From assembly GCA_020723935.1 (NCBI GenBank), contig DYHY01000004.1, positions 7,634 to 71,633 of the forward strand: a DNA stretch of 64,000 nt, read 5' to 3'. The DNA is from Candidatus Micrarchaeum sp. (GTDB lineage Archaea; SpSt-1190; DYHY01). The notes beneath the pieces are model-generated. The model was given only the letters and a program-made list of their open reading frames with translations. It did no database searches and was not told the DNA's origin. Below are positions 3,364-50,338 of the stretch, one piece after another (within the stretch, counting starts at the first letter, position 1; the number at the start of each line of letters is the position of its first letter). A program made the translations under genes and the position numbers.

Positions 3364-3693
3364 TAGTCCGGAAAGGCGTCGCTCGTCCCGAGGCATTCCG
3401 AATACTTCGCGAAATTGTCGGCCATGTATTTGCGCCACTGCGCGTCCGTGTAGCCGGGAAGCTTGGCGCAATAGGCGGCGCCCCCGCCGGTGGCGGATGA
3501 GGGGCGCGCCTGCTGCTTCTGCTGCGGCGCTCCGTAGGCCAGGCTCCTGTAGGAAGCGCGATACCCTCTCCCCCAGGAAAGCGCCTCCGAGGGAACCGAG
3601 CATCAGGAGGAGGAGAACTGCTACTGCGCCCGCCTTCGTGAGCAGGTCCCGTCTCACTTTCTTTCCACCGTGCCTAGCCCAGGCATTCCGCAT
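3364..3693 (-). pseudogene. small secreted protein, frameshifted paralog of 3674..3904
   Basis: Signal-peptide-like N-terminus in one frame; C-terminus (CAKLPGYTDAQWRKYMADNFAKYSECLG) in the +1 frame aligns with the neighbouring gene. The shift falls at a GGGGG run. Confidence 0.4.
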
Positions 3694-3904
3694 ACCGGTC
3701 CGGGTGGTGGCCCATGTGCTGTCTCCACGCAGCGTCGGTGTACCCGGCGGGGGTGGCGCACTTGTCGAGGGGGTTCTGCGCCGCGAAAGTCCGCTGCGCT
3801 TGGGCTGCCGTGTAAAGGGGCTTGGGCGCCAGAATCCCCGAAAGCGTCCAGGCGAGCGTCCCGACCGCGAAAAGGAGCAAGACTACCAGGGCTGTCGCCT
3901 TCAT
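3674..3904 (-). CDS. small secreted protein with signal peptide
   Basis: MKATALVVLLLFAVGTLAW signal peptide, then conserved CATPAGYTDAAWRQHMGHHPDRYAECLG. GGAGG-like motif upstream of the internal Met. Confidence 0.5.
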   Translation of the reverse strand: MKATALVVLLLFAVGTLAWTLSGILAPKPLYTAAQAQRTFAAQNPLDKCATPAGYTDAAWRQHMGHHPDRYAECLG

Positions 3905-3993
3905 CGGGCCGCCGGAACTTCCCCCCCTCCCCTGCCGCCCGCCGTCTCCGTGTTCGCGCTCTTCCTTGCCCCTCCGCTCGTTCTCCATGTTTT

Positions 3994-4602
3994 TCATCCT
4001 CCATACCTCGCCACGTATCCTATAGCGAAAACAACCGAAATGAACGATATCGTCAGGACGACCCGCTTGGCGTACTCCAGGTCGCGCCCGAGAAGGAAGT
4101 CGAGGAAGCCGATGCCAGTCACCCTCACGCCAGCCCTCCGGACGTACGAGAGCATCATGAAGGTCCCTAGAACGTTTGAGAATATCGTAGCGAGGAGAAA
4201 CGCCGGCTGGTAGCGGAAGAAGAAGAAGCTCGTCAGGGTGGAGATTCCAATGAGGGGGACGTCGGTCAGGTGGTGCGCGCAGCGGGCGACCATCGACGCG
4301 CCCGAGACTCCTGCGGAGCCCGCGAGCGGGGACGCACCGACCGCGACGAGGCCTGAAGCGTAGGAATAGATCCAGAACTGGAAGGCGGGGAGGGCCGAGA
4401 TGACGAGGACGAAGGGCAGCATCTGCCTGAACTGGGCGACCGCGAGATCGAACGAGTTGAAGACGAGCATTATCGAGAAGTAGAGCGTGGGCATCGCTAC
4501 CAGGCCTGCCAGGGCCGCCAGGGCCGCCAGGGCCGCGAGGATGCGCCCGGATTTGCCGGCGGCCTCCACCTTTCCCGGGCCCGCTTTCGTCCCCGCTTCC
4601 AT
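3994..4602 (-). CDS. integral membrane protein (about 6 TM) of unknown function
   Basis: 202 aa hydrophobic ORF. Last gene of a three-gene minus-strand set with the TRASH and His-rich proteins. Confidence 0.45.
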   Translation of the reverse strand: MEAGTKAGPGKVEAAGKSGRILAALAALAALAGLVAMPTLYFSIMLVFNSFDLAVAQFRQMLPFVLVISALPAFQFWIYSYASGLVAVGASPLAGSAGVSGASMVARCAHHLTDVPLIGISTLTSFFFFRYQPAFLLATIFSNVLGTFMMLSYVRRAGVRVTGIGFLDFLLGRDLEYAKRVVLTISFISVVFAIGYVARYGG

Positions 4603-4603
4603 C

Positions 4604-4873
4604 TCAGTGCCGATGCCTCCCCGCGCCCTTCTTCTCCTCCTCCTTCTCCTCCTTCAGCCCCCCTTCCTCGCCGCCGTGGTCGTGGCTGTGGCGGCCCTTT
4701 CCCGAGAACATCATCCAGAGGTGGAGCGCGGCCATTCCGCTTATCAGAATCATCGAGGCCGTTCCGCCGGAGATCCTCACGCCCAAGAACGGCAGGGCGA
4801 CAACCGCAAGGAGCGGCGCTACGCAGGCGAAGACCATCCAGAAGCCGCTGTCGCCGTCCTTCAGGAATCCCAT
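4604..4873 (-). CDS. small membrane protein with His-rich C-terminal tail
   Basis: Two TM segments, then HSHDHGGEEGG...HRH. Immediately downstream of the TRASH gene. Confidence 0.45.
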   Translation of the reverse strand: MGFLKDGDSGFWMVFACVAPLLAVVALPFLGVRISGGTASMILISGMAALHLWMMFSGKGRHSHDHGGEEGGLKEEKEEEKKGAGRHRH

Positions 4874-5125
4874 CTAGTGGCAGCAGTCTCCTCCGGAGTG
4901 CCCGCGGGATTCCAGCTCGACCTTGCGCTCGAATTTCTCGAGGCAGTTCTTCGAGCAGAACCATTGGCCGTGGCGCTCCGTGGCGCTCCCTTCCTTCCTC
5001 TTCCTCCCGCATATCGGGTCCTTCTTCGTCTCGAACAGTCCGAACAGTTCCCTTCTACTCAGCTCCTTCTTTCCTTTCTCGCAATCTTGCCGGCCTTGCC
5101 CGCAGCCTCGTCCTCGCCGCAGCAA
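4874..5125 (-). CDS. TRASH/YHS-type metal-binding domain protein
   Basis: DPICGRK...WFCSKNCLEKFE matches the TRASH/YHS Cys pattern, like the CopA N-terminus at 15557. C-terminal GGDCCH. Confidence 0.6.
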   Translation of the reverse strand: MLRRGRGCGQGRQDCEKGKKELSRRELFGLFETKKDPICGRKRKEGSATERHGQWFCSKNCLEKFERKVELESRGHSGGDCCH

Positions 5126-5351
5126 GGTGATTCCGGGAACTTCCTGGCCGCTTCCGCCGCCTCGGGGTTCCTCCTGGCGAGATCCTCGAGCGTCACTTTT
5201 TCCCCGCCTCCCGGAGGAACCAGAAGAGCGCGTAGGCGTCGAGGGCGTCGGAGAAACAGTCCATCGCGGCCTTCCTGTCGCCCGCCCCGCCCCTCTTTAT
5301 CCCGACCTCAAGGAGGCGCATCGTTGTCCTGAGGAGGTGCTTTGAGACGCA

Positions 5352-20215: not shown

Positions 20216-20323
20216 GGCCGGGCCGCGGCGGGGTCTGGAGGGCGCCGAACGAAGAGAGGGGCCCGGAACGGCCGGGCCGCGGCGGGGTCTGGAGGGCGCC
20301 GAACGAAGAGAGGGGCCCGGAAC
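20216..20323. repeat. perfect tandem duplication (2 x 54 bp) that includes the 3' terminal 10 nt of tRNA-His
   Basis: ggccgggccgcggcggggtctggagggcgccgaacgaagagaggggcccggaac at 20216-20269 and again at 20270-20323. Confidence 0.9.
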
Positions 20324-20385
20324 GGGAATCGAACCCGTGTTTGGGGATCCACAGTCCCCCAGTCTGCCACTAACTTATCCAGGCC
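20314..20385 (-). tRNA. tRNA-His (anticodon GUG) with extra 5' G-1
   Basis: Hand-folded cloverleaf. Acceptor GCCUGGA/UCCGGGC with one G-U. Anticodon stem GGGGA/UCCCC, loop CUGUGGA. T-arm ACGGG-UUCGAUU-CCCGU. Discriminator C73 pairs with G-1. TTTATAAAAG box about 30 nt upstream. No encoded CCA. Confidence 0.85.
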
Positions 20386-20873
20386 ACGATCGACTGCGAA
20401 GACTCCTGGAAGGCGCTTTATAAAAGTTAGATGCCCCGCGCTTCCTGCCGCGGCGCGCCATTTCGCCGGGCTTGGCTAGCTCCACTGCGCACAGCATCCA
20501 GAAGGCCGCCGCGCAGATGAGGAGGGCCTCCGCGAGCAGTATCAGCCAGTCGGACCCGATCCCGCGCGCGAAGGCGCGCGTCGCGGCCGCCGTCCATAGG
20601 AGGATGACGAAGAAGACGACGCCGGAATAGCCCGGCCGAAGATCCCCCCGCTGCCCCTGAGCGCCCGGACGCCCGCGACGATGGAATATGCCATGAGGCC
20701 GCCGCCGCGAGCCCGAGGAAAAGTATCGAAACAGTCAGGATGCCGCCCGTCCCCCTGCAAGCCGGCAGCGCTCAGTTTAAGGGTTCTGCCGGAAGACCCG
20801 GAACGTTATAAATGCCGGGCGGGGCCCCGCCCCCGTGCTAGGGACCAATATCGCCCTCGCGGCCGAAGCGGTG

Positions 20874-29274: not shown

Positions 29275-29297
29275 TTGCTTTGGGTGAGAACCGGGGA

Positions 29298-29310
29298 GAC
29301 TTTATATAAA
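29298..29310. promoter_or_regulatory. palindromic TATA-like box TTTATATAAAA shared by divergent tRNA-Trp and the ACD gene
   Basis: About 26 nt upstream of the tRNA 5' end and 30 nt upstream of the ATG at 29340. Confidence 0.35.
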
Positions 29311-29339: not shown

Positions 29340-30725
29340 ATGGCAGAGGCACGGGGAGCGATCAACACCTTCTTTGACCCCAAGACAATAGCGGTCGTCG
29401 GGGTCTCCTCCACTGAGGAGGAAGGGCCGGGCCGGATAATATTCAAGAACCTCTCCTCGGGCTTTCCTGGGAAGGTCTATGCTGTCAACCCCCGGGCCGC
29501 GCAGATAGAGGGGGCGCGCTGCTACCCGTCCGTCGGGGAGATACCCGGGCCCGTCGACCTGTGCGTGATAGCGACGCCCGCCGCGGTCGTCCCGCAGATA
29601 CTCGAGGACTGCGGCCGCAAGGGGACGCGCAACGCGATAATAGTGTCCGGCGGCTTCGGCGAGGTCGGGAACACGGACCTGGAGGCGCGCCTCGAGGAGG
29701 CCTCAGTCAAGCACGGGATCAGGATAATAGGCCCAAACTGCCTGGGGATCTACGACTCGCATTCCAAGATAAACGCGTTCTTCCTCCCCAGCTACAGGAT
29801 ACGCGTGCCGAAGCCTGGGAACGTCGCGTTCATCAGCCAGAGCGGCGCGGTCGCCGGCGGGGGCCTGGACTGGGCGGCCGCCGAGAACATCGGGATCTCC
29901 AAGATCGTCTCCTACGGCAACAAGCTGGACGTAGGGGAGTGCGAGATGCTCGAATACCTGGAGCGCGACGACCGCACGAAGGTCATAATGGTGTACCTGG
30001 AGGGCCTCAAGGACGGGAGGCGGTTCGTGAGGATAGCCCGCAGGGTCTCCAGGAAGAAGCCTATAATAGTCCTCAAGGTCGGGAACACCTCCAGGGGCGC
30101 GGCCGCGGTCAAGAGCCACACCGGGTCCCTCGCGGGCGACTCCAAGGTCTACGCCGGCGCCTTCGCCCAGGCGGGCATCGTCCAGGCGAGGACCCTGGAG
30201 GAGCTCTTCGACTTCGCGAAGGCGTTCTCCCTCCAGCAGCCGGGCGCGGGCCCGCGCGTCCAGGTGATAACTAGCGGCGGGGGCTTCGGCGTCATGGGGA
30301 CGGACGCGATAGAGGAGAACGCTCTCGTCATGGCCGAGATGGGGGAGGAGAGGCGGGCTGCCCTGCGCGCCCAGCTCCCGGCGCATTGCGTGATCGTAAA
30401 CCCGCTGGACGTCACGGGGGACTCGGACGCCGAAAGGTACAAGCTCGCGACGGACGCGGCGATAGATGACCCTGCGGTCGACGCGATCCTCCTGATCTTC
30501 CTCTTCCAGCTCCCGAAGCTCTCGACGGAGGTCGTGAAGATAATGGCCCTCGCCGACAGGCGCACCGACAAGCCGATAGTCGCCGTCGCGATAGGGTCGG
30601 AATTCACGCACCTGCACCGGGTCACGATGGAAGCCGAGGGGATCCCGGTCTACGACACGCCCGAGCGGGCGGTGCGCGCGATGAAGGCGCTCGTCGACGC
30701 GGGACGCCTCCGCGCCGCGCCATGA
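29340..30725 (+). CDS. acetyl-CoA synthetase (ADP-forming) / NDP-forming acyl-CoA synthetase alpha subunit
   Basis: CoA-binding N-terminus TIAVVGVS, succinyl-CoA-synthetase-like core, GPNCLG. Start at MAEARG within track ORF 29313..30725. Confidence 0.8.
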   Translation: MAEARGAINTFFDPKTIAVVGVSSTEEEGPGRIIFKNLSSGFPGKVYAVNPRAAQIEGARCYPSVGEIPGPVDLCVIATPAAVVPQILEDCGRKGTRNAIIVSGGFGEVGNTDLEARLEEASVKHGIRIIGPNCLGIYDSHSKINAFFLPSYRIRVPKPGNVAFISQSGAVAGGGLDWAAAENIGISKIVSYGNKLDVGECEMLEYLERDDRTKVIMVYLEGLKDGRRFVRIARRVSRKKPIIVLKVGNTSRGAAAVKSHTGSLAGDSKVYAGAFAQAGIVQARTLEELFDFAKAFSLQQPGAGPRVQVITSGGGFGVMGTDAIEENALVMAEMGEERRAALRAQLPAHCVIVNPLDVTGDSDAERYKLATDAAIDDPAVDAILLIFLFQLPKLSTEVVKIMALADRRTDKPIVAVAIGSEFTHLHRVTMEAEGIPVYDTPERAVRAMKALVDAGRLRAAP

Positions 30726-31701: not shown

Positions 31702-33129
31702 ATGGGAATACGCCTCTACAACACGCTCACGAGGAAGGTCGAGGAGTTCTCGCCGATGGGCGAGACGGTCGGCCTCTACACCTGCGGCCCGACGATATAC
31801 AACTTCGCGCACATCGGGAACTTCCGCGCCTACGTCTGCCAGGACGTCCTCAAGCGCCACCTGCGCCACAGGGGCTTTGCCGTGCGCCACGTCATGAACC
31901 TCACGGACGTCGACGACAAGACGATACGCGACTCGCAGAAGGAGGGCGTCGTCTTGAAGGCCTTCACGGACAGGTACAAGAAGGCGTTCTTCGAGGACAT
32001 CGCGGCGCTCAGCATCGTCCCCGCCGAGGCCTATCCCGAGGCGACCGCCTACATCGAGGACATGATCTCCCTCATCGAGTCGCTAATGAGGAAGGGCGTC
32101 GCGTACCGGGGCGAGGACGGCTCGGTCTACTACAACATAAGGAAGTTCCCGGAGTATGGTAAGCTCTCCAAAATAAACCTCGAGGGGCTCCTCGCCGGCG
32201 CGAGGGTCAAGCAGGACGAGTATTCCAAGGAGCAAGCCAACGACTTCGCGCTCTGGAAGGCGTACGACCCCCCGGACGGGATGGTCTACTGGGAGAGCCC
32301 CTGGGGCAGGGGGCGCCCCGGCTGGCACATCGAATGCTCCGTGATGAGCATGAGGAACCTCGGGGAGACCTTCGACATACACTGCGGGGGGATAGACCTC
32401 ATCTTCCCCCACCACGAGGACGAGATAGCGCAGAGCGAGGCCGCCACAGGGAAGAAGTTCGCGAACTACTGGGTACACAACGAGCACCTCCTCGTCAACG
32501 GGAAGAAGATGTCCAAGTCCATGGGGAACTTCTACACCCTGCGCGACGTCCTTTCCAGGGGCTACTCGGGGAAGAGTGTGAGATACCTCCTCATCTCGAC
32601 GCAATACCGTCAGCAGCTGAATTTCACCTTCCAGGCCCTGGACGCCGCGCAGGCGGCCGTCGGCAGCCTCGAGGAGCTCGTGAGGAACCTGAAGGCGCGC
32701 GAGGAGGCGGGAAGGGGTGCGGCTAGGTCGGACATGCTCCCCGCGCTCGTCGAATCCTCTAGGCGCGCGTTCGATTCCGCGATGGACGCCGACCTCAACA
32801 CCCCCGAGGCGCTCTCCGCGGTGTTCGCGTTCGCGCACGAGATGAACAGGCTCATGGGCTCCCTTTCGGCCGAGGACGCGCAGGACGCCCTGAGGCTCCT
32901 CTCGGAGTTCGACTCCGTCCTGGGGGTCCTGGGGGAGGCGTTCTCGGAGAAGGAGGCCCTCCCGCCGGAGGTGGAGGAGCTCGTCGCGAAGCGCGAGGAG
33001 GCGCGGGCCGGCAGGGACTGGAAGATGGCCGACTCCTTCCGCGCCCAGATAGAGGCTTTCGGCTATGCAGTGCAGGACCGCAAGGACGGGGCGCCCGCAG
33101 TCAGGAAAATACGACCCGAACGTCGCTAG
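31702..33129 (+). CDS. cysS: cysteine--tRNA ligase
   Basis: HIGN (HIGH) and KMSKS motifs. Zn-binding Cys pattern. 475 aa. Confidence 0.95.
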
Positions 33130-33541
33130 GCGGCCGGGGCTTCCAGGAGGAGACCTCCTTGTGCAGCCTGTCGAGGAGGTCGCGCGCCTCGGGGCCTATG
33201 TATTGCAGCTCGACTGACAGGCGCGTGGGCTCGAAGGTCGCCGAGACGAGCGGCTGGCTGTTGTAGAAGTTGGACCAGGTCATCCTCGCTATCGCCTTGT
33301 GCGGACGCTCCTCGGAGAGCTGGTCCGAGTACATCGCGACCAGGCCCTCGCGGTCGATAGGCTTGGCCAGGTCCTTGTAGTGGATTATCTTGGAATATTG
33401 CGGGTAGAATGCCATGCCTGCCTGCGGCTCGGTCGTGACGTCGTGGCGGAACTCCAGGACGTGCACCTGCTCGGGCTCGCCGAGTATCGAGAGGAGGCGT
33501 CTGAGGAATTCGGGGTGCCATGCGACGGGGCTCTTCACCAT
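33101..33541 (-). CDS. hypothetical protein downstream of cbf5
   Basis: 146 aa, protein-like composition. No family recognised. Confidence 0.4.
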   Translation of the reverse strand: MVKSPVAWHPEFLRRLLSILGEPEQVHVLEFRHDVTTEPQAGMAFYPQYSKIIHYKDLAKPIDREGLVAMYSDQLSEERPHKAIARMTWSNFYNSQPLVSATFEPTRLSVELQYIGPEARDLLDRLHKEVSSWKPRPPSDVRVVFS

Positions 33542-33553
33542 GCGGGTGCGGAA

Positions 33554-34543
33554 TCAAGCCCCCTTCTTCGGCTCGTCCTTCTTCTTCCACATGCGCGGAT
33601 AGGTGCCGCCGGGCATGACGACCCTCACGGGGCTCGCCGCCCAGCCCCTGCTTGCGGACGCCATCTGCCGGGCGTCGCACATCGACGTCGCGAGGGAGAC
33701 TAACTCCTCCTTGCCGCTTATGACCGCGATGAGCTCGCCCGGGACGATTCCTGCATCGATCTTCGTCAGCCCCACGCTCGCTAGGTTTGCCCCACAGCAG
33801 ACGGCCTCGATCGCGCCGTCCTTCACCCAGACCTTCGGGAGGTGGGAGACTGCGGATTCCACCGGGAGCACGGCCTTCCTGATCCTCGCCTCCTCGCCGG
33901 ACTCCATCGCGTCGGCAAGGTCCTGGAGCGTCACGCTGTCCGCCTCCATGAACGGCCCGGCGCGCGTGCGCCGCAGCTCCGTCATGTTGGCGCCCCCCAG
34001 CTTCCTCCCGAGGTCGTGGCACAGCTTCCTGATGTAGGTTCCGGCCTCCACGCTCGTCCTGAACAGGGCGTCCTGGCCCTCGATCTCCGTTATCTCCAGG
34101 GAATACACGCGCCTGGGCCTGATCTCGCGCTTCACCGCCGAGCGCACAGGGGGCTTCTGCATTATCGTCCCGACGAACCCCGCGGCCGCGGAGCGCAGGG
34201 CGGCCTCGTCGACCGGATGGTGCAGGTGCATAACCCCGACGTACTCCTTCCCCGCCGGAAGGAGGGCGTAGAGGACCTTCGTCGCGTCGTTTATCGCGGT
34301 CGGGAGGACGCCCGTGACGTTAGGGTCCAGGGTCCCTGAATGGCCCGCGCGCGCGGCCGAGAGCATGTCCCTCACCCAGGAGGCAACCTCGTGGCTCGTC
34401 GGGCCCGCGGGCTTGTTCAGGTTTATCACGCCGAAGCGCATGAGCTCCTTCATCGGCCGCGCGTCGGGGAAAATGCCGAACTTCTGGTCGGACTCCTCGG
34501 AAGATGCGCCTTCGCGGGAAAGGAACTCGCCGGTCTTGGGCAT
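33554..34543 (-). CDS. cbf5: H/ACA RNP pseudouridine synthase Cbf5 (TruB family with PUA domain)
   Basis: GHSGTLDPNVTG catalytic motif. C-terminal PUA-like region. Confidence 0.9.
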   Translation of the reverse strand: MPKTGEFLSREGASSEESDQKFGIFPDARPMKELMRFGVINLNKPAGPTSHEVASWVRDMLSAARAGHSGTLDPNVTGVLPTAINDATKVLYALLPAGKEYVGVMHLHHPVDEAALRSAAAGFVGTIMQKPPVRSAVKREIRPRRVYSLEITEIEGQDALFRTSVEAGTYIRKLCHDLGRKLGGANMTELRRTRAGPFMEADSVTLQDLADAMESGEEARIRKAVLPVESAVSHLPKVWVKDGAIEAVCCGANLASVGLTKIDAGIVPGELIAVISGKEELVSLATSMCDARQMASASRGWAASPVRVVMPGGTYPRMWKKKDEPKKGA

Positions 34544-34607: not shown

Positions 34608-35072
34608 CTAGATCTCTATCTCGAAAAAGTCGCGCACGATGAGGCTCGCGACGACCGCTATGTAGAAGTACCACCAGAACCAGGAGAGGCTGGACACGAA
34701 GGCTATCGGGGGCATCTTCCAGACGAGGATCGGGATGGGCATGGGCGTCGGTATCTGCAGCGTCGCGTACGCCTTCTGGGCCCAGCCGAGGAGGAAGATG
34801 AAGATGAAGGACGAGATGAGGTTGGGCTTCATCGTGAGGGAGAGGCGCCTCATGGAGAGCTCGTTCACCTTCCCCAGGGCCCCCTCGAGCTTCTTGGGCT
34901 CCTTCGTCTTCTGCGCCTCCTTCATCTTGGCCTGGGCGTGCTCCAGCTGCTTCTTGAGCTCGCGCAGCGCCGTCTGGTCGGAGAGCTTCTTGAAGAGGAG
35001 GTTCTGTATTACCACCGCGGCGAACGCTATCGCGATTATCTCAAGGGCCTTGAGGGCGACTTCGGAGACCAT
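34608..35072 (-). CDS. DUF106-type membrane protein (archaeal YidC/Oxa1/EMC3-like insertase)
   Basis: TM1, Lys-rich coiled coil, TM2-TM3. Located next to secY as in many archaea. Confidence 0.55.
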   Translation of the reverse strand: MVSEVALKALEIIAIAFAAVVIQNLLFKKLSDQTALRELKKQLEHAQAKMKEAQKTKEPKKLEGALGKVNELSMRRLSLTMKPNLISSFIFIFLLGWAQKAYATLQIPTPMPIPILVWKMPPIAFVSSLSWFWWYFYIAVVASLIVRDFFEIEI

Positions 35073-35084
35073 CCTAGGGCCCCC

Positions 35085-36542
35085 TCACTTGCTCCCGGCG
35101 ACGAAGCCTTTGAGCATCGGGGCCATGTCGACGAGGTGCTGCTTGACGACGCTCTCGTACATCTTGTAGACTATCATGACCGTAAGGAGTATCCCCGTGC
35201 CCCCGCCTATCGCCTGCGTGAAGTCGGCGAACGCCGCGAGGAGGCCGACGGCCGCCCCGCCTATCACGGTGAGGTAGGGGATGTAGCGGTCCAGGATCAT
35301 CTCTATCACGCGCGGGTCGCTCCTGAAGCCTCTCACCTGCATCCCGGCCTGGTTGATCTGCGCGGCGACCGACTTTGTGTCCTGGCCACTAGTCTTCACC
35401 CAGAAGATGGAGAAGAGGACGGAACCCACGACCATGAAGACTGTGTACGTGAAGGCCTGCAGGAGCATCGTGAGGTATATCAGGTTGTAGAAGTTGGCCG
35501 CCCCGCCGGCGACGAAGAGTGATGACACGTCGCGCGCGACCCCCCCGAAGAAGGCGAAGGGGTTGAGGAGGTATGTTATGAAGTTCGTCGGGGGCGTGAG
35601 GAAGAATATCAGGCCCGTCGCCGGGGCGTTGTTTGTCACGGTCCCCAGGAAGGCGAACCCCGCGTTCTGCGCGAGGCGCGCCCAGAGCTGGAGGTTTGCT
35701 ATCAGCGCCGCGACGAGGATGACGGGGATGTTCCCCGTGTAGAAGAGGTTGAGCGGCCAGCGCGTCGTCATCCCCGCGATCCTGCCGAACGCGAGGGGGA
35801 TCTCGACGTTTATCGACTGGGCGTAGACCGCGATGAAGAAGACGATGATCGTGAACACTATCGGGACGAGGACGTAGAGGGCCTGCGTCGGGTCGCCCTG
35901 GCCGAGGAACTGTAGGGCAGCGGGTATCCGGCCGGCCGCGATCGTCGGGTTCTGCGGGTTGGGGAGCGGGTTGAGGGCAGCGACCATCACTTCCGTCGCG
36001 ACGCCCGCCGCTATGAACAGGCTTATGCCCGAGACGAACCCCCATTTCTGGCAGAGCTCGTCGAGGAGGGCTATCAGCATCGTGCCCATGAAGAGCTGGG
36101 CCACGAGGAGCATCTTGAGGGTCGGGTCGTTGTTGAGCGCCGGAAGGCCGCCCATGTAGACGTAGATCCCCGCCTCGAAGAGGGCGACGACGATCGTGAG
36201 GACCTGCGAGAGGCCCTGGAAGATCTGCTTGTCGCGCGGCTTGCTCATATCCAGCGGCAGGAGCTTGACGCCGACAAGGAGCTGCAGGATTATCCCGGCG
36301 GTGACTATCGGGCCTATTCCCAGGGTTATTATGGACCCGAAGCGCCCGGCTATTATCGCCCTGACCGCCTGGAAGAAATCCACTTCCCACTGGGGGTCCA
36401 GGCCGTAGAGGGGGATCATGCCTAGGACGTAGTAGATGAGGAGGGCTATGGCGGTCCATTTCAGCTTCTCGTTGAATCCGAGGCGGAGGGTCGGCTTCTT
36501 TATCGCTGGGATGTATTTCAGGACTTCCTCTATTCCCGGCAT
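35085..36542 (-). CDS. secY: preprotein translocase subunit SecY
   Basis: 485 aa, 10 TM, canonical SecY N-terminus. Confidence 0.95.
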   Translation of the reverse strand: MPGIEEVLKYIPAIKKPTLRLGFNEKLKWTAIALLIYYVLGMIPLYGLDPQWEVDFFQAVRAIIAGRFGSIITLGIGPIVTAGIILQLLVGVKLLPLDMSKPRDKQIFQGLSQVLTIVVALFEAGIYVYMGGLPALNNDPTLKMLLVAQLFMGTMLIALLDELCQKWGFVSGISLFIAAGVATEVMVAALNPLPNPQNPTIAAGRIPAALQFLGQGDPTQALYVLVPIVFTIIVFFIAVYAQSINVEIPLAFGRIAGMTTRWPLNLFYTGNIPVILVAALIANLQLWARLAQNAGFAFLGTVTNNAPATGLIFFLTPPTNFITYLLNPFAFFGGVARDVSSLFVAGGAANFYNLIYLTMLLQAFTYTVFMVVGSVLFSIFWVKTSGQDTKSVAAQINQAGMQVRGFRSDPRVIEMILDRYIPYLTVIGGAAVGLLAAFADFTQAIGGGTGILLTVMIVYKMYESVVKQHLVDMAPMLKGFVAGSK

Positions 36543-36601: not shown

Positions 36602-37057
36602 CTATTCCTTCTTCCCGGGGGGAGCCGCTATGCTCCCGCCCGCGGATTCCACCTTCTCCTTCGCGGATTCGGTGAAAGATGTGCAGTTCGTGAGTATCAG
36701 GGGGCGTGTGACCTTGCCGCTCCCCAGGACCTTCCCTATGCCGAGCTTGGCGCAGTCGATCTCGACGGACGCGCCGCGCATCGACGCCAGCTTCTCCGCG
36801 ACGAGCTTCTCTGCCATCGCGTCGAGGAGCCCGACGTTCGCGGTCTCGGGCCTGTTCGCGACCTGGCCGGGCGTGTGGAAGCCGCACTTCCCGAAGTGGC
36901 CGGGGTCGTACTTGAGGCTCCAGACCCACAGGTGCTTGTCCCAGGCGTATCCCTTGCCGCCCTTGTTGCCCTTGCCGCGGTGCTTCTTCCCCGCCCCGTA
37001 GCCATGGGTCCTGTGGCCGCGCTCCTTCCTGGAGCGCTTCGGAAACCTCTTTGCCAT
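36602..37057 (-). CDS. rpl15: 50S ribosomal protein L15 (uL15)
   Basis: MAKRFPKRSRKERGHRTHGYGAGKKHRGKGNKGG. Start at the internal Met of track ORF 36602..37177. Confidence 0.9.
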   Translation of the reverse strand: MAKRFPKRSRKERGHRTHGYGAGKKHRGKGNKGGKGYAWDKHLWVWSLKYDPGHFGKCGFHTPGQVANRPETANVGLLDAMAEKLVAEKLASMRGASVEIDCAKLGIGKVLGSGKVTRPLILTNCTSFTESAKEKVESAGGSIAAPPGKKE

Positions 37058-37109
37058 GATGTGACTAACTATGCCTCGCCTGCAAGCCGTTTTTGGGTGT
37101 TTATAAAAC

Positions 37110-38075
37110 TTGGGTGGAGGCCGCGAGGCGCCTGACGGCGGCCTGCCTGCGGCTTGCCATTGGAAAGGGCTAAACAAGAAATTTATACAAGGTCGGGCCC
37201 TCCTGCGCGTGGCCTACGAGAACGAGGACGACCTTTCCGCCGCCGAGCGGGCCCGCCTCGGGATAAGCTTCTCGCACAAGGTCTACATCATGAGGGACAC
37301 GACGGGCGAAGCCGTGGCGGTGAAGACCGTGGACCCGATGGCCAACAAGGAGAGCGTCATAGACCTCAAGGTCGCGATGCCCAAGGAGGGGCGCGGGACG
37401 CTCCTCGAGATCGTGAAGGGTGTCTATTCGGGGATGCGCAGACTCCCTCAGAACTACGCCACCTACATGGCGCCCGACGGCATGCTCACCCGCGCGCAGA
37501 GGAGCGGGGTCGTCGGATACTCGGCCGAGAGGAGCCTTGAGGAGAACGGCCGGGTCGCGCAGTTCGTCGTGGGGAATTCCTCCGCGATGCAGGCGTTCAT
37601 AGGGCGGAAGCGCGCCGCCGCGTCGGACGCGTACGGCGCCGGATCGTCGGACGGGTACAAGGGGGATTCCAGCGCCGATTCCTACGGGCGCGGCGGCGAG
37701 GCGGAGCTCTGGGCGGGGCACAAGAAGGACGATGATGCATCCTCCCTGGCCGCGGGCGGGAAGAAGGCGGGGAAAGACCGGACCATCCAAGCCGGCCCTG
37801 CCGCCCGGCATCGCCGCGGGCGGGGCGCCGGAGCTGCTGCCCGGCGGGGAAAAGGGCCTCAGGAAGAGGGTGGTAGGAACGTGCGGGCCCCGTCCCCGTT
37901 TGCCACGGCAGACTTCCTGGAGATAGAGCTACTTCTTACCGAAACCGCCGCGGCCACGACATACCTGCAGCGAGAGCCGCCGTCTGCGGGCCCCGTCAGA
38001 TCATCCTTTCGAGGAGCGCGCCCATCCCGGCCTTCCTGTAGCCGGCCTCGCCCTTGGAGGAGACCTGCCGCTTGA
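37110..38075 (+). CDS. hypothetical protein encoded on the opposite strand between rpl30 and rpl15
   Basis: Coding-like codon usage over about 230 aa (VAYENEDDLSAAERARLGISF...MRDTTGEAVAVKTVDPMANKESVIDLKV...). Gly/Ser/Asp/Tyr-rich disordered middle. C-terminal 80 aa overlap rpl30 and look non-coding. Confidence 0.35.
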   Translation: MGGGREAPDGGLPAACHWKGLNKKFIQGRALLRVAYENEDDLSAAERARLGISFSHKVYIMRDTTGEAVAVKTVDPMANKESVIDLKVAMPKEGRGTLLEIVKGVYSGMRRLPQNYATYMAPDGMLTRAQRSGVVGYSAERSLEENGRVAQFVVGNSSAMQAFIGRKRAAASDAYGAGSSDGYKGDSSADSYGRGGEAELWAGHKKDDDASSLAAGGKKAGKDRTIQAGPAARHRRGRGAGAAARRGKGPQEEGGRNVRAPSPFATADFLEIELLLTETAAATTYLQREPPSAGPVRSSFRGARPSRPSCSRPRPWRRPAA

Positions 38076-38472
38076 GGCTCTTCTTGAAGCCCCCCGCGGG
38101 GGGGTGGAGGCGCATGTGCCTCTTGATCCCGTAGTCCTGAAGCTTCTTCCCCGAGAAGAGGCCCGCCGAGGCGTCCTTGGCCTTGGCCTCGTCGACGCGC
38201 GCATCCCCAGGGAGCCTTCCGCGCCTGGCGACGACCTTGGCGACCGTCTCCTGGTCCACTGGCCCCCACGCGACGTAGTCCTTGGCTATCTGGAGCATCG
38301 CGCGCGACGTCGGCGTGTCCGGCAGGAGCATGCAAGTGTTTATCCGATGGAGGTTGAGTATCACAAGGGTCCTCCTCGCGTCGGGCTTGGAGCCTATCGG
38401 CGACTTTATGAGGACCGCCGCGACCACTCCTCCGGCCGCCGGCGACTTTTCGTCTTTCTTGGGTATCTTCAT
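37996..38472 (-). CDS. rpl30: 50S ribosomal protein L30 (uL30)
   Basis: PDARRTLVILNLHRINTCMLLPDTPTSRAMLQIAKDYVAWG. Confidence 0.9.
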   Translation of the reverse strand: MKIPKKDEKSPAAGGVVAAVLIKSPIGSKPDARRTLVILNLHRINTCMLLPDTPTSRAMLQIAKDYVAWGPVDQETVAKVVARRGRLPGDARVDEAKAKDASAGLFSGKKLQDYGIKRHMRLHPPAGGFKKSLKRQVSSKGEAGYRKAGMGALLERMI

Positions 38473-38499: not shown

Positions 38500-39294
38500 T
38501 CACTTGAGGCCCCATTTCTCCGCGAATTCCTTGGGGACCGAGAGCGTGCTCGTCTGCTTGAGCGCCTCGAATGTGGCGTAGCCAAGGTTTATCCTGTTCC
38601 TCGTCTCTCCATCTATCCTTGACCAGGCATCCGTTATCCCGGCGAGCGCGAGGATCCTCTTCGCCTCCGGGTGCACGACCAAGCCCGTTCCCCGCGGGGC
38701 GGGGATGAGCTCGACCATGACGCTCGAGGACTTGCCGCGTATCTTGAAGGGGACGCTGTGGGGCTTTCCGCACCCGCATTCCCACGATCCGCACGCGCGA
38801 AGGACCCTCACCATATTGAGCTTGGCCGCCTTCGTCGAGGACTCCTTTGCAGGGAGGGATTCCCTCGACGAGCCCTTGCCCATGCCGATGTACCCGTCGT
38901 TGTTCCCGACGATCGCAAGGTACGAGAACTTGGTCCTCGCGCCCTCGCGCACCTTCTTCTGGGTGTTCTTGTACACCCTGCGCGCGCCGCCGCCGAACTT
39001 GCCCTTGGACTGGCCGATCATGACGAAGTCCACGGCGAGCTGCGGGAAGAAATAGTCGACGATCTCAGGCTCCATGACCTTGATGCCCTTGGAGAGTATC
39101 TCGTCGAAGCTCTTCACCTTGCCCGCAAGGACGTCTCGCCCGAGAGCCGTCTTGGGGATCCAGATCTTGGGCGCCGCGTCCTCGTCGCGCCTGTATCCTC
39201 CGGCCGCGCCCTTGCGCCTTCCCCGGCCCCTGCCTCCGCCGAAACCTCCGCGTCCGCCGGGCCTTCCGCCCGCTGATGGTCCTGCCATTTTCAA
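38500..39294 (-). CDS. rps5: 30S ribosomal protein S5 (uS5)
   Basis: Gly/Arg-rich N-terminus; S5 dsRBD and C-terminal domain. Confidence 0.9.
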   Translation of the reverse strand: MKMAGPSAGGRPGGRGGFGGGRGRGRRKGAAGGYRRDEDAAPKIWIPKTALGRDVLAGKVKSFDEILSKGIKVMEPEIVDYFFPQLAVDFVMIGQSKGKFGGGARRVYKNTQKKVREGARTKFSYLAIVGNNDGYIGMGKGSSRESLPAKESSTKAAKLNMVRVLRACGSWECGCGKPHSVPFKIRGKSSSVMVELIPAPRGTGLVVHPEAKRILALAGITDAWSRIDGETRNRINLGYATFEALKQTSTLSVPKEFAEKWGLK

Positions 39295-44040: not shown

Positions 44041-44430
44041 TCATGCCCCTTCCTTCTTCTTCGCTGCCGCCGGTGTCGCCGCGGCGGCGGCTCGGACGTG
44101 CTCCGCCCGCTTGATCACCGCTGTGACTATGAAGTTCATCGTCTTGGAGAGCTTCCTCGTCTCCTCGATCCTGACCGTGTCGCCGGACCGCGCGCCGAGG
44201 CCCTCGGGGTTCCTCGCCTTAACCCTGCTGGAGAGCCTCTTGAACCTGTTGTACTTGGGGACCCAGACGACGCGCGGCCACTCCACAATGACCGAGCCGT
44301 GCATCTTGTCGGACACGACCGTCCCCTCGAAAAACTTGCCCCTGGTCCTTACTGCCAGGGCTCCCGCCACGCCGAAAGCACCCTTTGGAGCCGCTTTGTG
44401 CGCTCCTCCGGTCTTGCCATGATCGCCCAT
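44041..44430 (-). CDS. rps17: 30S ribosomal protein S17 (uS17)
   Basis: GKFFEGTVVSDKMHGSVIVEWPRVVWVPKYNRFKR. 5' end overlaps the rnp1 3' end; start may be further downstream. Confidence 0.85.
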   Translation of the reverse strand: MGDHGKTGGAHKAAPKGAFGVAGALAVRTRGKFFEGTVVSDKMHGSVIVEWPRVVWVPKYNRFKRLSSRVKARNPEGLGARSGDTVRIEETRKLSKTMNFIVTAVIKRAEHVRAAAAATPAAAKKKEGA

Positions 44431-44699
44431 CCTTCGATATCCACCTTCGTTGTTCTTTTGCTGCTTCCCTTCTTTCCCTCGCCGGCGGGAATCGAGAAGC
44501 GGAACACGGCCCCTTTCTTCGGGACCTTCGTCTCCCGCTGCTTCCTCTTCCCGCTAGCGCTCTCAATCACCAAAAGGCGCTCCGTTTCCCACGCGACCGT
44601 CCCCGACAGGCCGACGAGGCCAGGGTCCGTCGCGCGCACGACTTTTACAGGAATCCCTGCGAACTCGTGACCCGCAAGGTTCCGAGGTGTGACAGGCAT
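44349..44699 (-). CDS. rnp1: RNase P protein component 1 (Rpp29/Pop4)
   Basis: GLVGLSGTVAWETERLLVI core. Conserved position between L29 and S17. Confidence 0.7.
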   Translation of the reverse strand: MPVTPRNLAGHEFAGIPVKVVRATDPGLVGLSGTVAWETERLLVIESASGKRKQRETKVPKKGAVFRFSIPAGEGKKGSSKRTTKVDIEGWAIMARPEERTKRLQRVLSAWREPWQ

Positions 44700-44738: not shown

Positions 44739-44993
44739 TTATAAGAGTTCCGGATGACCCTTCCTGAGGGAAAAGGGCCCCCTGTGGGAGCAAATCAGAA
44801 ATAGGGGTATTGCGGCCCGCCCGAGGTAGAGGGCGGTGAGGACGAGGACTGCGCACGTGAGCAGGCCCATCTTCCACCTGCGCGGGACGTCCTCGAGGGC
44901 CGTGTCCAGGAAGTCTAGGAACAGGAGGAGGGCGAGGGCGCAGCCCACGAGGAGGATGAGGAAGTTCGCCCCTTGAGAAAAGTCCGCGCGCAT
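44739..44993 (-). CDS. small two-TM membrane protein
   Basis: 84 aa hydrophobic ORF. An in-frame TAG 12 codons upstream of its Met separates a further 24-aa hydrophobic segment. Confidence 0.3.
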   Translation of the reverse strand: MRADFSQGANFLILLVGCALALLLFLDFLDTALEDVPRRWKMGLLTCAVLVLTALYLGRAAIPLFLICSHRGPFSLRKGHPELL

Positions 44994-45151: not shown

Positions 45152-45466
45152 TCAGTCGTTGTCCTTGACCTCGACCGATTCGGGGGGGAACCCGGCCGCG
45201 GCCAGGGCGGGGAGTATCCTCTTCCTGTGGTCGCCCTGCAGCTCTATTATCGCGTCCTTCCCGGTGCCGCCGCAGGCGAGGCGCTCCTTGAGTTTCTTTG
45301 TCACGTCCTCAATGTTGACGTCCTTGGGGTTTATCCCCTCGACGAGCGTCACCATCTTCTTGAACCTGCGCTTCTCGACCCGCACGACGATCTTCTGGAC
45401 CTCGCGGGAAATGCTCTCGCAGACGCAGAAATCCTTAGGTAGTCCGCACTTCTTGCATACTTCCAT
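45152..45466 (-). CDS. translation initiation factor SUI1 (aSUI1/eIF1)
   Basis: VVRVEKRRFKKMVTLVEG...LKERLACGGTGKD. Confidence 0.85.
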   Translation of the reverse strand: MEVCKKCGLPKDFCVCESISREVQKIVVRVEKRRFKKMVTLVEGINPKDVNIEDVTKKLKERLACGGTGKDAIIELQGDHRKRILPALAAAGFPPESVEVKDND

Positions 45467-48479: not shown

Positions 48480-49296
48480 GGTAGTAGAGTTTCTCCTCCT
48501 TGAGTTTCGCGATCGCGCCCTCGCTCCAGACTGTGAGCCTTCCCGGCACCGTCCCGGGCGCGAGAAGCTCGGCGTTGAGCTGGTTGACCGTGACTGCGTC
48601 AACACCGGGGATGTTCCTCGCGGCCCTGAGCGCGGCCGCGCCGGGCTTGGATAGGATGAGGAGGACCGACTTCTTGGCCTTGTAGGGCCGCCCCCTCATC
48701 TTCCCGACGCCCGCACGGGTCTTCCTCTTGGAAACGCGCTCTAGGTCCGAGCCCAGGCCCAGCTTCTGGAGAAGCGTCTCCATCTCCTTTGCCTTGGAGA
48801 TCTCCTCCGCGCCGTCCTCGACGATTATCGGGAGCTCCAGCTCCTTCGCTATCCTGTGGCCGCGCGCCTGGACGAGCATTATCTGCGCCGTCGCGGCGAT
48901 CGCGCTCCTGATCGCAAGGAGCCTCTCCTTGCGGTTGATCCGCTCCGTGAAGTTCTTCTCGGGGGTGGGGGCGTGCACCGACCTTCCGCCCACCGCCTGC
49001 GGGACGATCTTGGCCTGGCCGACGCGCCTTCCGCCCTTCTTTATCAGGAGGCGTGGGATCCTGGCCTGCCCGTATCCGTAGGAATGGCCCCAGCCCTTCC
49101 TCGTGCCCTTGTAGCGGGCGGACGAGCGCTTGCCGCTCTTGGGGTCCGGGCCGTAGGGCTGCCGCCTCGCGTTCTGCGAGGAGATGACGGCGCGCGCTAT
49201 GACGTCGGGCCTCACGCTTTCGGAGAACTGCGACGGGAGATCGGACCTTGCGGAGGTCTTCTCGCCCGACTTCGAATATACTGGAACCTTGCTCAT
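48472..49296 (-). CDS. rpl4: 50S ribosomal protein L4 (uL4)
   Basis: 274 aa, canonical. Confidence 0.9.
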   Translation of the reverse strand: MSKVPVYSKSGEKTSARSDLPSQFSESVRPDVIARAVISSQNARRQPYGPDPKSGKRSSARYKGTRKGWGHSYGYGQARIPRLLIKKGGRRVGQAKIVPQAVGGRSVHAPTPEKNFTERINRKERLLAIRSAIAATAQIMLVQARGHRIAKELELPIIVEDGAEEISKAKEMETLLQKLGLGSDLERVSKRKTRAGVGKMRGRPYKAKKSVLLILSKPGAAALRAARNIPGVDAVTVNQLNAELLAPGTVPGRLTVWSEGAIAKLKEEKLYYHG

Positions 49297-50255
49297 TGCC
49301 TGATCACTCCTTCCATCGCGACATTGTCTACCTTCCTCGCGGGGTAGACCTTTTCAGGTATGCGCATGGCGAACCTCAGGCGCACGAGCCTCTTGGATGG
49401 CCCGGGGACCGAGCCCGCGATGAGGAGATAGTCGCCCTCGACCTTGCCTCCGTAGCCCGTGATTCCGCCGGGGACGTCCAGGCCCTTGTCGGACATGAAG
49501 ACGACCTGCTTGTTGAACTCGCAGCGCTGGTTGTATCCGGCCTTGCCGGGCATCGGCGTCTGCCAGAGGACCCTCTTGGGGCGCCAGCTGCCGATGTTGC
49601 CCGGCCGCCTCCTTGAGCGCTTGGTCTTAGGGGGCTGGAGCGGGACGTTGTGCCTAGCGACGGGGCCCAGGAACCCGTGGCCCTTGGTGACCGCGAAGAC
49701 GTCGATGTAATCGCCGACAGTGAGGACGTCGGATGCCCTGATGTCCTTCCCCAGGAGCTCTTCGGCCTTCTTCTTCTGCTCCTCAGGGGTGCCGGCGACC
49801 GCCACTTCCATCACTTCCGGCTTCTTCTTCCCGAAGCCTGCGATGCGTGGCTGCGTCGCGACGAGGATCACCACCTTGTCGAACTTCTCCGGGGCCTTGC
49901 CCTCGGCGGCCTTCTTGGGAAGGGGCCTCATCGTCCTCGCGAGGTCCTTGGGGAGGCTTGATGCCATCACCTGGCCCGTCTTCTTCTTCCCCTTGTAGAA
50001 CACGGCGCCTATCGCCTTCAGGGGCGGCGTGTGGAGGACGGTGAGTGCCTCCTGGCGCGGCTGGTTCACGAGGATGCTCTTGGGATTGTTCTCTATGAGC
50101 TGGCCGTGGGTTATCGCAACCTTGTATCCCGAAAAGCCGAGGATCGACTTGCCCTCGGGAGCGACCCATGTCCGGATGCGAGGTATCTCGCTGTCCGCGC
50201 GTGCACGGGGATTGAACTGCCTGCTTCCCCTTCTAGGATGGCTGAATTTGCCCAT
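49293..50255 (-). CDS. rpl3: 50S ribosomal protein L3 (uL3)
   Basis: 320 aa, canonical. First gene of the cluster. Confidence 0.9.
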   Translation of the reverse strand: MGKFSHPRRGSRQFNPRARADSEIPRIRTWVAPEGKSILGFSGYKVAITHGQLIENNPKSILVNQPRQEALTVLHTPPLKAIGAVFYKGKKKTGQVMASSLPKDLARTMRPLPKKAAEGKAPEKFDKVVILVATQPRIAGFGKKKPEVMEVAVAGTPEEQKKKAEELLGKDIRASDVLTVGDYIDVFAVTKGHGFLGPVARHNVPLQPPKTKRSRRRPGNIGSWRPKRVLWQTPMPGKAGYNQRCEFNKQVVFMSDKGLDVPGGITGYGGKVEGDYLLIAGSVPGPSKRLVRLRFAMRIPEKVYPARKVDNVAMEGVIRQ

Positions 50256-50338
50256 GTTGGTATCGGGAAGGGGCCTTCTTGAGCCGTTTATAATGTTTTA
50301 GGGGTTTAAAAGGGGGCCTGGAACGCCCCGGGGCGCCC

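Follow-up and report, generated by a model that had tools for sequence, protein, structure and literature searches.

An antisense gene separating uL30 from uL15 in the ribosomal protein cluster of a small group of uncultured archaea

Gene Arrangement at the uL30–uL15 Junction

A 64,000-nucleotide stretch of contig DYHY01000004.1 from Candidatus Micrarchaeum sp. (GenBank assembly GCA_020723935.1, positions 7,634 to 71,633 of the forward strand), referred to here as the window, carries an S10-spc ribosomal protein (r-protein) gene cluster on its minus strand, which runs from uL3 to uS5 and uL30 and continues with uL15 and secY (Table 1). The genes of this cluster are closely packed throughout, except that 938 bp (37058–37995) separate the stop codon of uL30 from the start codon of uL15, and the plus strand of this gap harbors the gene that is the subject of this study and is named ORFX here. 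A gap of about 940 bp at this junction had been noticed in an earlier reading made from the letters alone (hereafter, the sequence-only reading), and both of its borders are now anchored by Pfam matches to the flanking genes. Contiguity of uL30 and uL15 is standard in archaeal S10-spc clusters (PMC10833476), and the two genes are contiguous in 10 more distant loci whose SecY proteins are 40–48% identical to that of the window, most of them labelled Woese-, Pace-, or Nanoarchaeota (L004 is labelled Methanosarcinales, and L014 is unclassified); the premise that S5, L30, L15, and SecY normally adjoin one another is thus borne out. In a contiguous operon the uL30 stop and the uL15 start would lie within tens of bases of each other on one strand, with no promoter between them, whereas the window has the 938-bp gap, an antisense gene, and the sequence TTTATAAA 42 nt before uL15. 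ORFX and uL30 are convergent, and ORFX as annotated runs into the last 80 nt of uL30. A search against Rfam gave no match inside the gap at E-values up to 1, and at the gathering threshold it returned only two tRNAs in the whole window.

Table 1. Coordinates of ORFX, its parts, its putative promoter elements, and the flanking genes in the window.
Feature	Position	Strand	Basis or remark
secY	35085..36542	-	Open reading frame (ORF) list; second gene of the predicted downstream unit
uL15 gene	36602..37057	-	Pfam PF00828 Ribosomal_L27A, E=1.7e-11; tblastn to relatives; first gene of the predicted downstream unit
Putative TATA box of the uL15-SecY unit, TTTATAAA	37100..37107	-	Palindrome; 42 nt upstream of uL15 ATG
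Putative BRE/TATA-like element of ORFX, AGAAATTTATACA	37177..37189	+	19 nt before GTG 37209
ORFX	37209..38075	+	Uninterrupted ORF, 288 amino acids; NCBI protein P0001 begins at the same GTG
N-terminal globular domain, residues ~1-98	37209..37502	+	AlphaFold2, two runs agreeing
Conserved extension, residues ~99-147 (~45 amino acids)	37503..37649	+	SG.VGYS.E.S..N....VGN.S...F.G......D.YG.G
Gly/Ser/Asp/Tyr low-complexity segment	37611..37700	+	SDAYGAGSSDGYKGDSSADSYGRGG at about 37620-37700, modelled as disordered
Coding signal shifted by +1 from the annotated frame	37770..37875	+	Codon statistics
Frame-0 stretch, NVRAPSPFATADFLEIELLL	37878..37937	+	Aligned with the family C-terminal motif VNYSxTYAEDLSDxWESSVF; family stop absent
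uL30 gene	37996..38472	-	Pfam PF00327 Ribosomal_L30, E=1.3e-12; last gene of the predicted upstream unit
uS5 gene	38500-39294	-	Upstream of uL30; more cluster genes on to uL3
uL3 gene	49293-50255	-	Head of the r-protein cluster

Coding Signal, Start Codon, and Selection

ORFX is coding and under purifying selection. The plus-strand frame is open from TTG 37110 to 38075 in the ORF list, and a codon log-likelihood trained on neighbouring genes was above zero in this frame only, from about 37200 to 37725, the five other frames being negative. The G+C content at third codon positions (GC3) of the ORFX frame was 0.87–0.97, compared with 0.885 in the known genes of the window used for training, and over 37209–37775 the frame-specific codon log-likelihood ratio (LLR) reached +201 bits at a GC3 of about 0.9. 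The sequence-only reading had described a coding-like ORF of 230–320 residues on this strand; its coding character holds to about 37775, to which point LLR and GC3 are gene-like, but the start is GTG 37209 and the last ~100 codons are not coding-like in that frame. The frames on the r-protein strand, which had been regarded as shadows, proved to be so, as their codon log-likelihood is negative, including that of the Arg/Pro/Gly-rich ORF at 37170–37811 (213 amino acids). In the alignment, GTG 37209 coincides with the ATG or GTG start of all homologues (M-[GA]-Y-…), and TTG 37110 was rejected as a start, since it lies upstream of the promoter element and it is the GTG that aligns with the homologue starts. 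The ratio of nonsynonymous to synonymous substitution rates (dN/dS), estimated by the Nei–Gojobori method for close pairs among L001, L017, and L018, was 0.08–0.11 for the N-terminal domain, and 0.15 and 0.21 for the remainder of the protein in the two pairs with unsaturated dS.

Long open frames may also arise by chance in a GC-rich non-coding spacer from which no protein is made, and the high G+C content here (64% in the window and 64–70% in the spacer context) does give long ORFs in every frame; the non-coding character of the final ~100 codons would fit such an origin. This reading is opposed by the codon signal over 37209–37775, by eight homologous proteins with 14 invariant columns, by a dN/dS of about 0.1, and by a TATA box at the correct distance. 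As regards the initial two thirds of the ORF, it is already refuted by conservation and dN/dS, and as an account of ORFX it is considered extremely improbable.

Distribution and Synteny of the ORFX Family

A scan based on SecY, with one genome per species, identified two close relatives of the window (L001 and L002, SecY 78–80% identical), and in both of them an ORF homologous to ORFX faces uL15 in head-to-head orientation. P0002–P0006 were recovered by profile searches of 5.8 billion proteins, and an exhaustive HMMER search of 1.84 billion representative sequences added P0007, P0008, and the remote P0009 (E=3e-4), with no relatives beyond these detectable among the representatives; no further members appeared when P0009 was included in the profile, and a scan of metagenome contigs returned only the JGI contig that had already been found. 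The family as defined here consists of nine proteins, P0001–P0009, namely the window product and eight homologues, together with a paralogue at locus L022, and the family profile matches the window ORF with E=5.4e-70. Identity between the window and its relatives is 41–49% for ORFX, ~80% for SecY, and 46–69% for uL30, and the nearest named relatives by SecY, at ≤48% identity, are Woese-, Pace-, and Nanoarchaeota.

Six of the eight homologues are located head-to-head with uL15–SecY, in assemblies whose SecY is 78–80% identical to that of the window, and every family member situated in an r-protein cluster has this orientation. The complete order uL30, antisense ORFX, uL15–SecY was found in L001, L017, L018, and L021, and partial support for the conserved position comes from L020, where ORFX and uL30 are convergent on a fragment of 1.1 kb. 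The synteny comparison that the sequence-only reading had proposed thus reveals an insert common to a small clade, as a conserved unnamed gene rather than a known one. The ORFX–uL15 adjacency is also kept in L019, where two extra plus-strand genes of 114 and 401 amino acids, with no Pfam hit on record, lie between ORFX and uL30 (3678–5246), and in L002, where an unrelated plus-strand gene of 246 amino acids (104–844) overlaps the 3′-end of ORFX and uL30 is not nearby. At L022, 449–940 and 1002–1433 on the plus strand encode P0009 and a neighbour of 143 residues (profile E=8e-9), which are remote paralogues of the N-terminal domain of ORFX arranged in tandem; they are located outside any ribosomal cluster, near Trm1, cytidylyltransferase-like, and ABCE1-like genes.

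The window derives from a metagenome-assembled genome (MAG), and two apparent frame changes occur within 100 nt of each other in ORFX, so that the gap might be an artefact produced by a chimeric join in the contig, an outcome that had been named in advance as one that would overturn the observation. The ORFX arrangement, however, recurs across seven independent assemblies (NCBI MAGs, JGI, and Logan). Because independent assemblies from three sources have the same order of uL30, ORFX, and uL15–SecY, misassembly is excluded for practical purposes, with a residual probability close to nil.

Putative Promoters and Proposed Division of the Cluster

The ORFX–uL15 spacers of six genomes, ~110–150 bp in length, were aligned. 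The palindromic candidate TATA box of uL15 is unchanged in all six, at a distance from the uL15 ATG of 25 nt in L001 and 42 nt in the window, and this invariance lends indirect support to the suggestion that the antisense gene may affect transcription of the superoperon. The same octamer occurs twice in the window compared with an expectation of 0.05, the other copy (20417–20424) being 32 nt upstream of a tRNA gene (20314–20384, minus strand). On the ORFX side, the relatives have a TATA box, TTTTATAT, 20–22 nt ahead of the start codon, and the window has a pattern resembling a TFB-recognition element (BRE) and TATA box that matches three times in 64 kb against 0.07 expected, each time just upstream of a gene start: before ORFX, at 50287–50299 before uL3 (50255, minus strand), and at 29296–29308 before a gene starting at 29340 (plus strand). 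Archaeal promoters have the TATA box centred near −26/−27; the observed spacings therefore point to mRNAs with no leader or a short one in either direction. In relatives of lower G+C content, A-runs and T-runs are present in the convergent ORFX/uL30 spacers, consistent with oligo-T termination of both transcripts. A scan for bacterial-type promoters and terminators, which does not cover archaeal promoters, found none in the gap. As an observation of wider use, the elements at 20417–20424, 29296–29308, and 50287–50299 provide a promoter consensus that can be used for this GC-rich genome.

These motifs suggest a model in which the cluster uL3…uS5–uL30–uL15–secY would be transcribed as two units in the ORFX clade. 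The upstream unit, uL3…uL30, would end in the convergent ORFX/uL30 spacer, and the downstream unit, uL15–secY–DUF106…, would be driven by its own promoter. A leaderless ORFX mRNA would start from a bidirectional promoter region that also serves uL15–secY, and because of this common region the expression of ORFX is probably coupled to that of uL15 and SecY.

Predicted Architecture of the ORFX Protein

AlphaFold2 was run on the full-length protein with 6 sequences and on residues 1–153 with 8 sequences. The N-terminal domain was predicted to have the element order α(11–17), β(24–29), β(35–42), β(47–57), α(59–77), β(83–87), β(93–97), with predicted local distance difference test (pLDDT) scores of ~77–87 over residues 11–90 and below 50 everywhere outside the folded domain, and its columns Y3, G18, V25, G33, N46, D52, L53, E60, N82, M87, G91, and R95 are invariant in all nine members. 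In the extension that follows, the sequence is kept (G100, GYS, VGN.S, D.YG.G), yet pLDDT is below 50. The Gly/Ser/Asp/Tyr-rich disordered region reported in the sequence-only reading is present, likewise with pLDDT below 50; in the window it contains three SD(A/G/S)Y(G/K) units, two of which form a 24-nt imperfect tandem repeat (direct repeat D3, 37612–37634 and 37636–37658, 83%), and across the family the linker after the conserved extension is rich in Gly, Ser, Asp, Tyr, and Lys and variable in length. In P0002–P0006 an amphipathic helix follows, and then the tail VNYSxTYAEDLSDxWESSVF directly before the stop codon, whereas P0007, P0008, and P0009 are without this tail. The N-terminus is acidic, and the protein appears to be cytosolic, no signal peptide or transmembrane segment being evident by eye there or elsewhere. 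The isoelectric point ranges from 5.7 to 9.9 across the family; therefore, ORFX does not encode a typical basic ribosomal protein.

The Anomalous 3′ Third of the Window Copy

Past about 37770, the annotated frame has a GC3 of 0.63–0.67 and an Arg/Gly/Ala-rich translation (DRTIQAGPAARHRRGRGAGAAARRGKGPQEEGG). Over 37770–37872 (34 codons), frame +1 has a GC3 of about 0.88 and exceeds frame 0 by 49.6 bits, compared with an off-frame excess of at most 10.9 bits among 1223 control segments of equal size in 40 genes of the window. The best-scoring path passes from frame 0 to frame +1 near 37773–37788 and back near 37873–37878, and it gains 58 bits over a path with no switch; a TAG stands in frame +1 at 37924–37926. 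In the 15 codons that follow the return to frame 0 (37878–37922, NVRAPSPFATADFLE), 13 end in G or C, and they lie at the position of VNYSxTYAEDLSD in the relatives. The C-terminal motif and stop that characterize the subclade P0002–P0006 have in the window a faint counterpart, …FATADFLEIELLL, with no stop. Neither this stretch nor the shifted segment is significantly similar to the relatives in any frame by tblastn or shuffled Smith–Waterman alignment (37776–37925). Similarities noted by eye, GKTGPSKPAL with GKSGKIPPL and DRTI, were rejected, as they are without statistical significance in any frame. Frame 0 then runs on with a non-coding-like composition (GC3 ~0.65) to its end in uL30, whereas in the relatives ORFX and uL30 are separated by 38–88 nt or overlap by 4 nt.

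In the window genome, then, the 3′ third of ORFX would have been reshaped, with the frame anomaly at 37770–37875 and loss of the family stop, and the frame anomaly would be due either to two recent compensating indels plus stop loss or to consensus errors in the MAG. For this copy, the C-terminal third as publicly annotated is probably wrong, and no more than the first ~189 residues of the 288-residue product should be relied on. It is also possible that the window copy is decaying, that is, that its N-terminal two thirds are intact, its C-terminal part is frameshifted and without a stop, and its product is functionally truncated or on the way to a pseudogene. The 49.6-bit preference for frame +1, the absent family stop, the GC3 of the read-through tail and its 80-nt overlap with uL30, and the lack of significant similarity to relatives in any frame would all be expected in that case. 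However, the ORF is open from end to end, and the anomaly could be two MAG consensus errors; moreover, P0007 and P0008, the nearest relatives, are also without the WESSVF tail, so that the C-terminus is naturally labile. Decay is a real possibility, albeit one judged less probable than not, and in partial form it is compatible with ORFX being a genuine clade-restricted gene.

A side observation concerns the same region. The exact 13-nt direct repeat TGCGGGCCCCGTC occurs at 37882–37894 and 37985–37997, 103 nt apart; the first copy coincides with the return of the ORFX coding signal to frame 0, and the second spans the uL30 stop codon. This repeat may have arisen by chance in DNA of 70% GC, or it may be the remnant of a small duplication.

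Origin and Possible Function

The narrow distribution of ORFX, its opposite strand, and its putative promoter are features that cargo of a mobile element, a virus, a toxin–antitoxin system, or a defence system inserted in the operon would also have, and the tandem paralogues at the unrelated locus L022 and the 13-nt repeat at 37882 and 37985 could be read in the same way. Against such an origin, searches of PHROGs and PADLOC gave no notable match (the best was that of one member to PtuB, E=0.006), and no relatives were found in a scan of viral contigs in IMG/VR or by tblastn against the plasmids of PLSDB. An integrase, a partner gene, and flanking inverted repeats are all absent, GC3 and codon usage are host-like, and the position is stable across the clade. 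A mobile or defence origin is consequently regarded as very improbable.

Scans of all nine members against Pfam, NCBIfam, PHROGs, and PADLOC returned nothing significant, whether enzyme, DNA-binding, phage, or defence family, in agreement with the lack of a family match in the sequence-only reading, and a sequence-profile search of the PDB gave one match at E=3, which is noise. Foldseek searches of the PDB and BFVD gave a best E of ~0.01 and probabilities of ≤0.51, and no fold-family assignment is made for ORFX. The top lists from both databases consist mainly of Gcn5-related N-acetyltransferase (GNAT) proteins (Gcn5, FemX, SpeG, and RimI-like). The N-terminal domain might thus be a minimal, highly diverged GNAT acetyltransferase, for example an r-protein modifier like RimI, RimJ, or RimL. 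Its β-β-β-α-β core resembles β2–β4/α3/β5 of the GNAT fold, and an r-protein gene context would be fitting. Unlike GNAT acetyltransferases, however, ORFX is much smaller, is without the acetyl-CoA pyrophosphate-binding motif, and has no Pfam hit, and its structural scores are non-significant. The tests that define the family therefore fail on domain size, acetyl-CoA loop, and profile hits: no significant profile or structure match extends over the ~160-residue domain, and the β4–α3 junction, where motif A (Q/R-x-x-G-x-G/A) would be expected, is P-K-E-G-R-G-T in the window, compared with H-R-E-G-Q-S-S in relatives and P-K-E-S-Y-G-Q in P0009, without conservation of the glycines at the required spacing. 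A GNAT identity is held to be about as improbable as a mobile origin.

The element order of ORFX is also that of what is here taken to be the secretion-chaperone-like fold, α-β3-α-β2-α, of the class I chaperones of type III secretion systems (SycH and ShcF). The order matches in both AlphaFold2 models, in which the last helix (106–113) has a pLDDT below 50, and the Foldseek scores do not single out this fold. It is tentatively suggested, as an idea of rather low probability, that ORFX is a non-enzymatic protein, either a binder, an adaptor, or chaperone-like, which contacts partners in the translation or secretion machinery through its folded head and its linear-motif tail. A more specific version, to which only slight probability is attached, would make ORFX a new accessory factor of archaeal translation or secretion. 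It would be a small secretion-chaperone-like adaptor with a folded head and a disordered tail ending in an acidic–aromatic motif, co-regulated with uL15 and SecY through the bidirectional promoter and binding nascent or unfolded clients or the ribosome/SecY in a lineage without SecA and SecB. A role as a regulator is possible but unsupported.

Other Genes of the Cluster and Its Surroundings

Several further observations were made on minus-strand genes of the window. Directly after SecY, 34608–35072 encodes a membrane protein of 154 amino acids, whose orthologues in L017–L019 are assigned to Pfam EMC3_TMCO1 (DUF106/YidC-like insertase), and this gene is followed by one for a Cbf5-type pseudouridine synthase (33554–34543); neither an adenylate kinase nor a cytidylate kinase gene is present after SecY. 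Between the Cbf5 and cysteinyl-tRNA synthetase genes, an ORF of 146 amino acids (33101–33541) is matched in L018 by one of 149 amino acids for which no Pfam hit is recorded, and it seems to be a further conserved hypothetical gene of the clade. Within the S10-spc cluster, two ORFs lie between the genes at 44041–44430 and 45152–45466: one of 116 amino acids (44349–44699) that resembles the RNase P protein Rpp29 by eye, and a hydrophobic one of 84 amino acids (44739–44993) with a low codon score and no obvious counterpart in the standard cluster.

Comparison with Known Clusters and Implications

Taken together, ORFX is likely to be a genuine clade-restricted protein-coding gene that, in the common ancestor of a small uncultured archaeal group, was fixed at the uL30/uL15 junction, with the r-protein cluster split into two transcription units. 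Several points weigh against this interpretation. The remote pair at L022 lies outside r-protein clusters, which argues against an obligatory link to uL15/SecY, and in genomes whose SecY proteins are ~80% identical, synteny may be inherited rather than selected. The proposed promoters, termination, and two-unit split are derived from sequence motifs, and the convergent ORFX/uL30 spacer of the window itself is without an obvious oligo-T terminator. The structure models rest on only 6–8 sequences, and the 3′-end of the window copy may be in partial decay.

Like the canonical archaeal S10-spc cluster, the window has the gene order uL3 to uL30 followed by uL15–SecY, tight gaps, and a TATA-like element before uL3; it differs in the opposite-strand gene that fills the 938-bp gap, in the putative internal promoter, and in the lack of an adenylate kinase gene after SecY. 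Archaeal r-protein clusters also contain non-ribosomal genes (SUI1/aIF1, RNase P Rpp29, adk, cmk, and the DUF106/EMC3-like gene after SecY), and ORFX resembles them in being held at a fixed cluster position over evolutionary time. These passengers are on the same strand as the cluster, co-transcribed, widespread in archaea, and of known function, whereas ORFX is antisense, appears to have its own promoter, is present in only a few genomes, and is without an assigned function. Fragmented r-protein clusters have been described in some DPANN and Asgard genomes (PMC10833476), and an independent interruption of uL30–uL15 was found here in a DPANN archaeon, Woesearchaeote SI047_bin27 (L007). At this locus, a gene for a multi-pass membrane protein of 202 amino acids (3940–4548, plus strand) lies between uL30 and uL15, the latter at 4548–4985 and missed by tblastn with the window uL15. 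In contrast to ORFX, that gene is on the same strand as its neighbours and is butted against both, which suggests that it is probably co-transcribed with them; its sequence is unrelated, and the search with the ORFX profile gave no match at the locus. The break of the junction had been called unusual, and the junction is normally intact; in view of L007, it is nevertheless less inviolable than implied. What is distinctive in the present case is the antisense orientation, the conserved putative bidirectional promoter, and a family without detectable relatives beyond about nine sequences.

The uS5–uL30–uL15–SecY series is among the most conserved gene adjacencies of bacteria and archaea, and the present case illustrates how such an adjacency can be disrupted, with the new arrangement then stably maintained. 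The likely route is that an orphan gene became fixed at the uL30/uL15 junction, on the opposite strand, in the ancestor shared by the group, with the downstream half of the operon gaining a promoter of its own from the same short spacer. ORFX represents a small new protein family under purifying selection beside core translation and secretion genes of reduced archaeal genomes, and it may reasonably be regarded as a candidate housekeeping accessory specific to this lineage. If it is just another lineage-specific hypothetical gene, the finding would be a modest note on operon evolution; its significance would rise if ORFX proved to be an accessory factor of translation or secretion.

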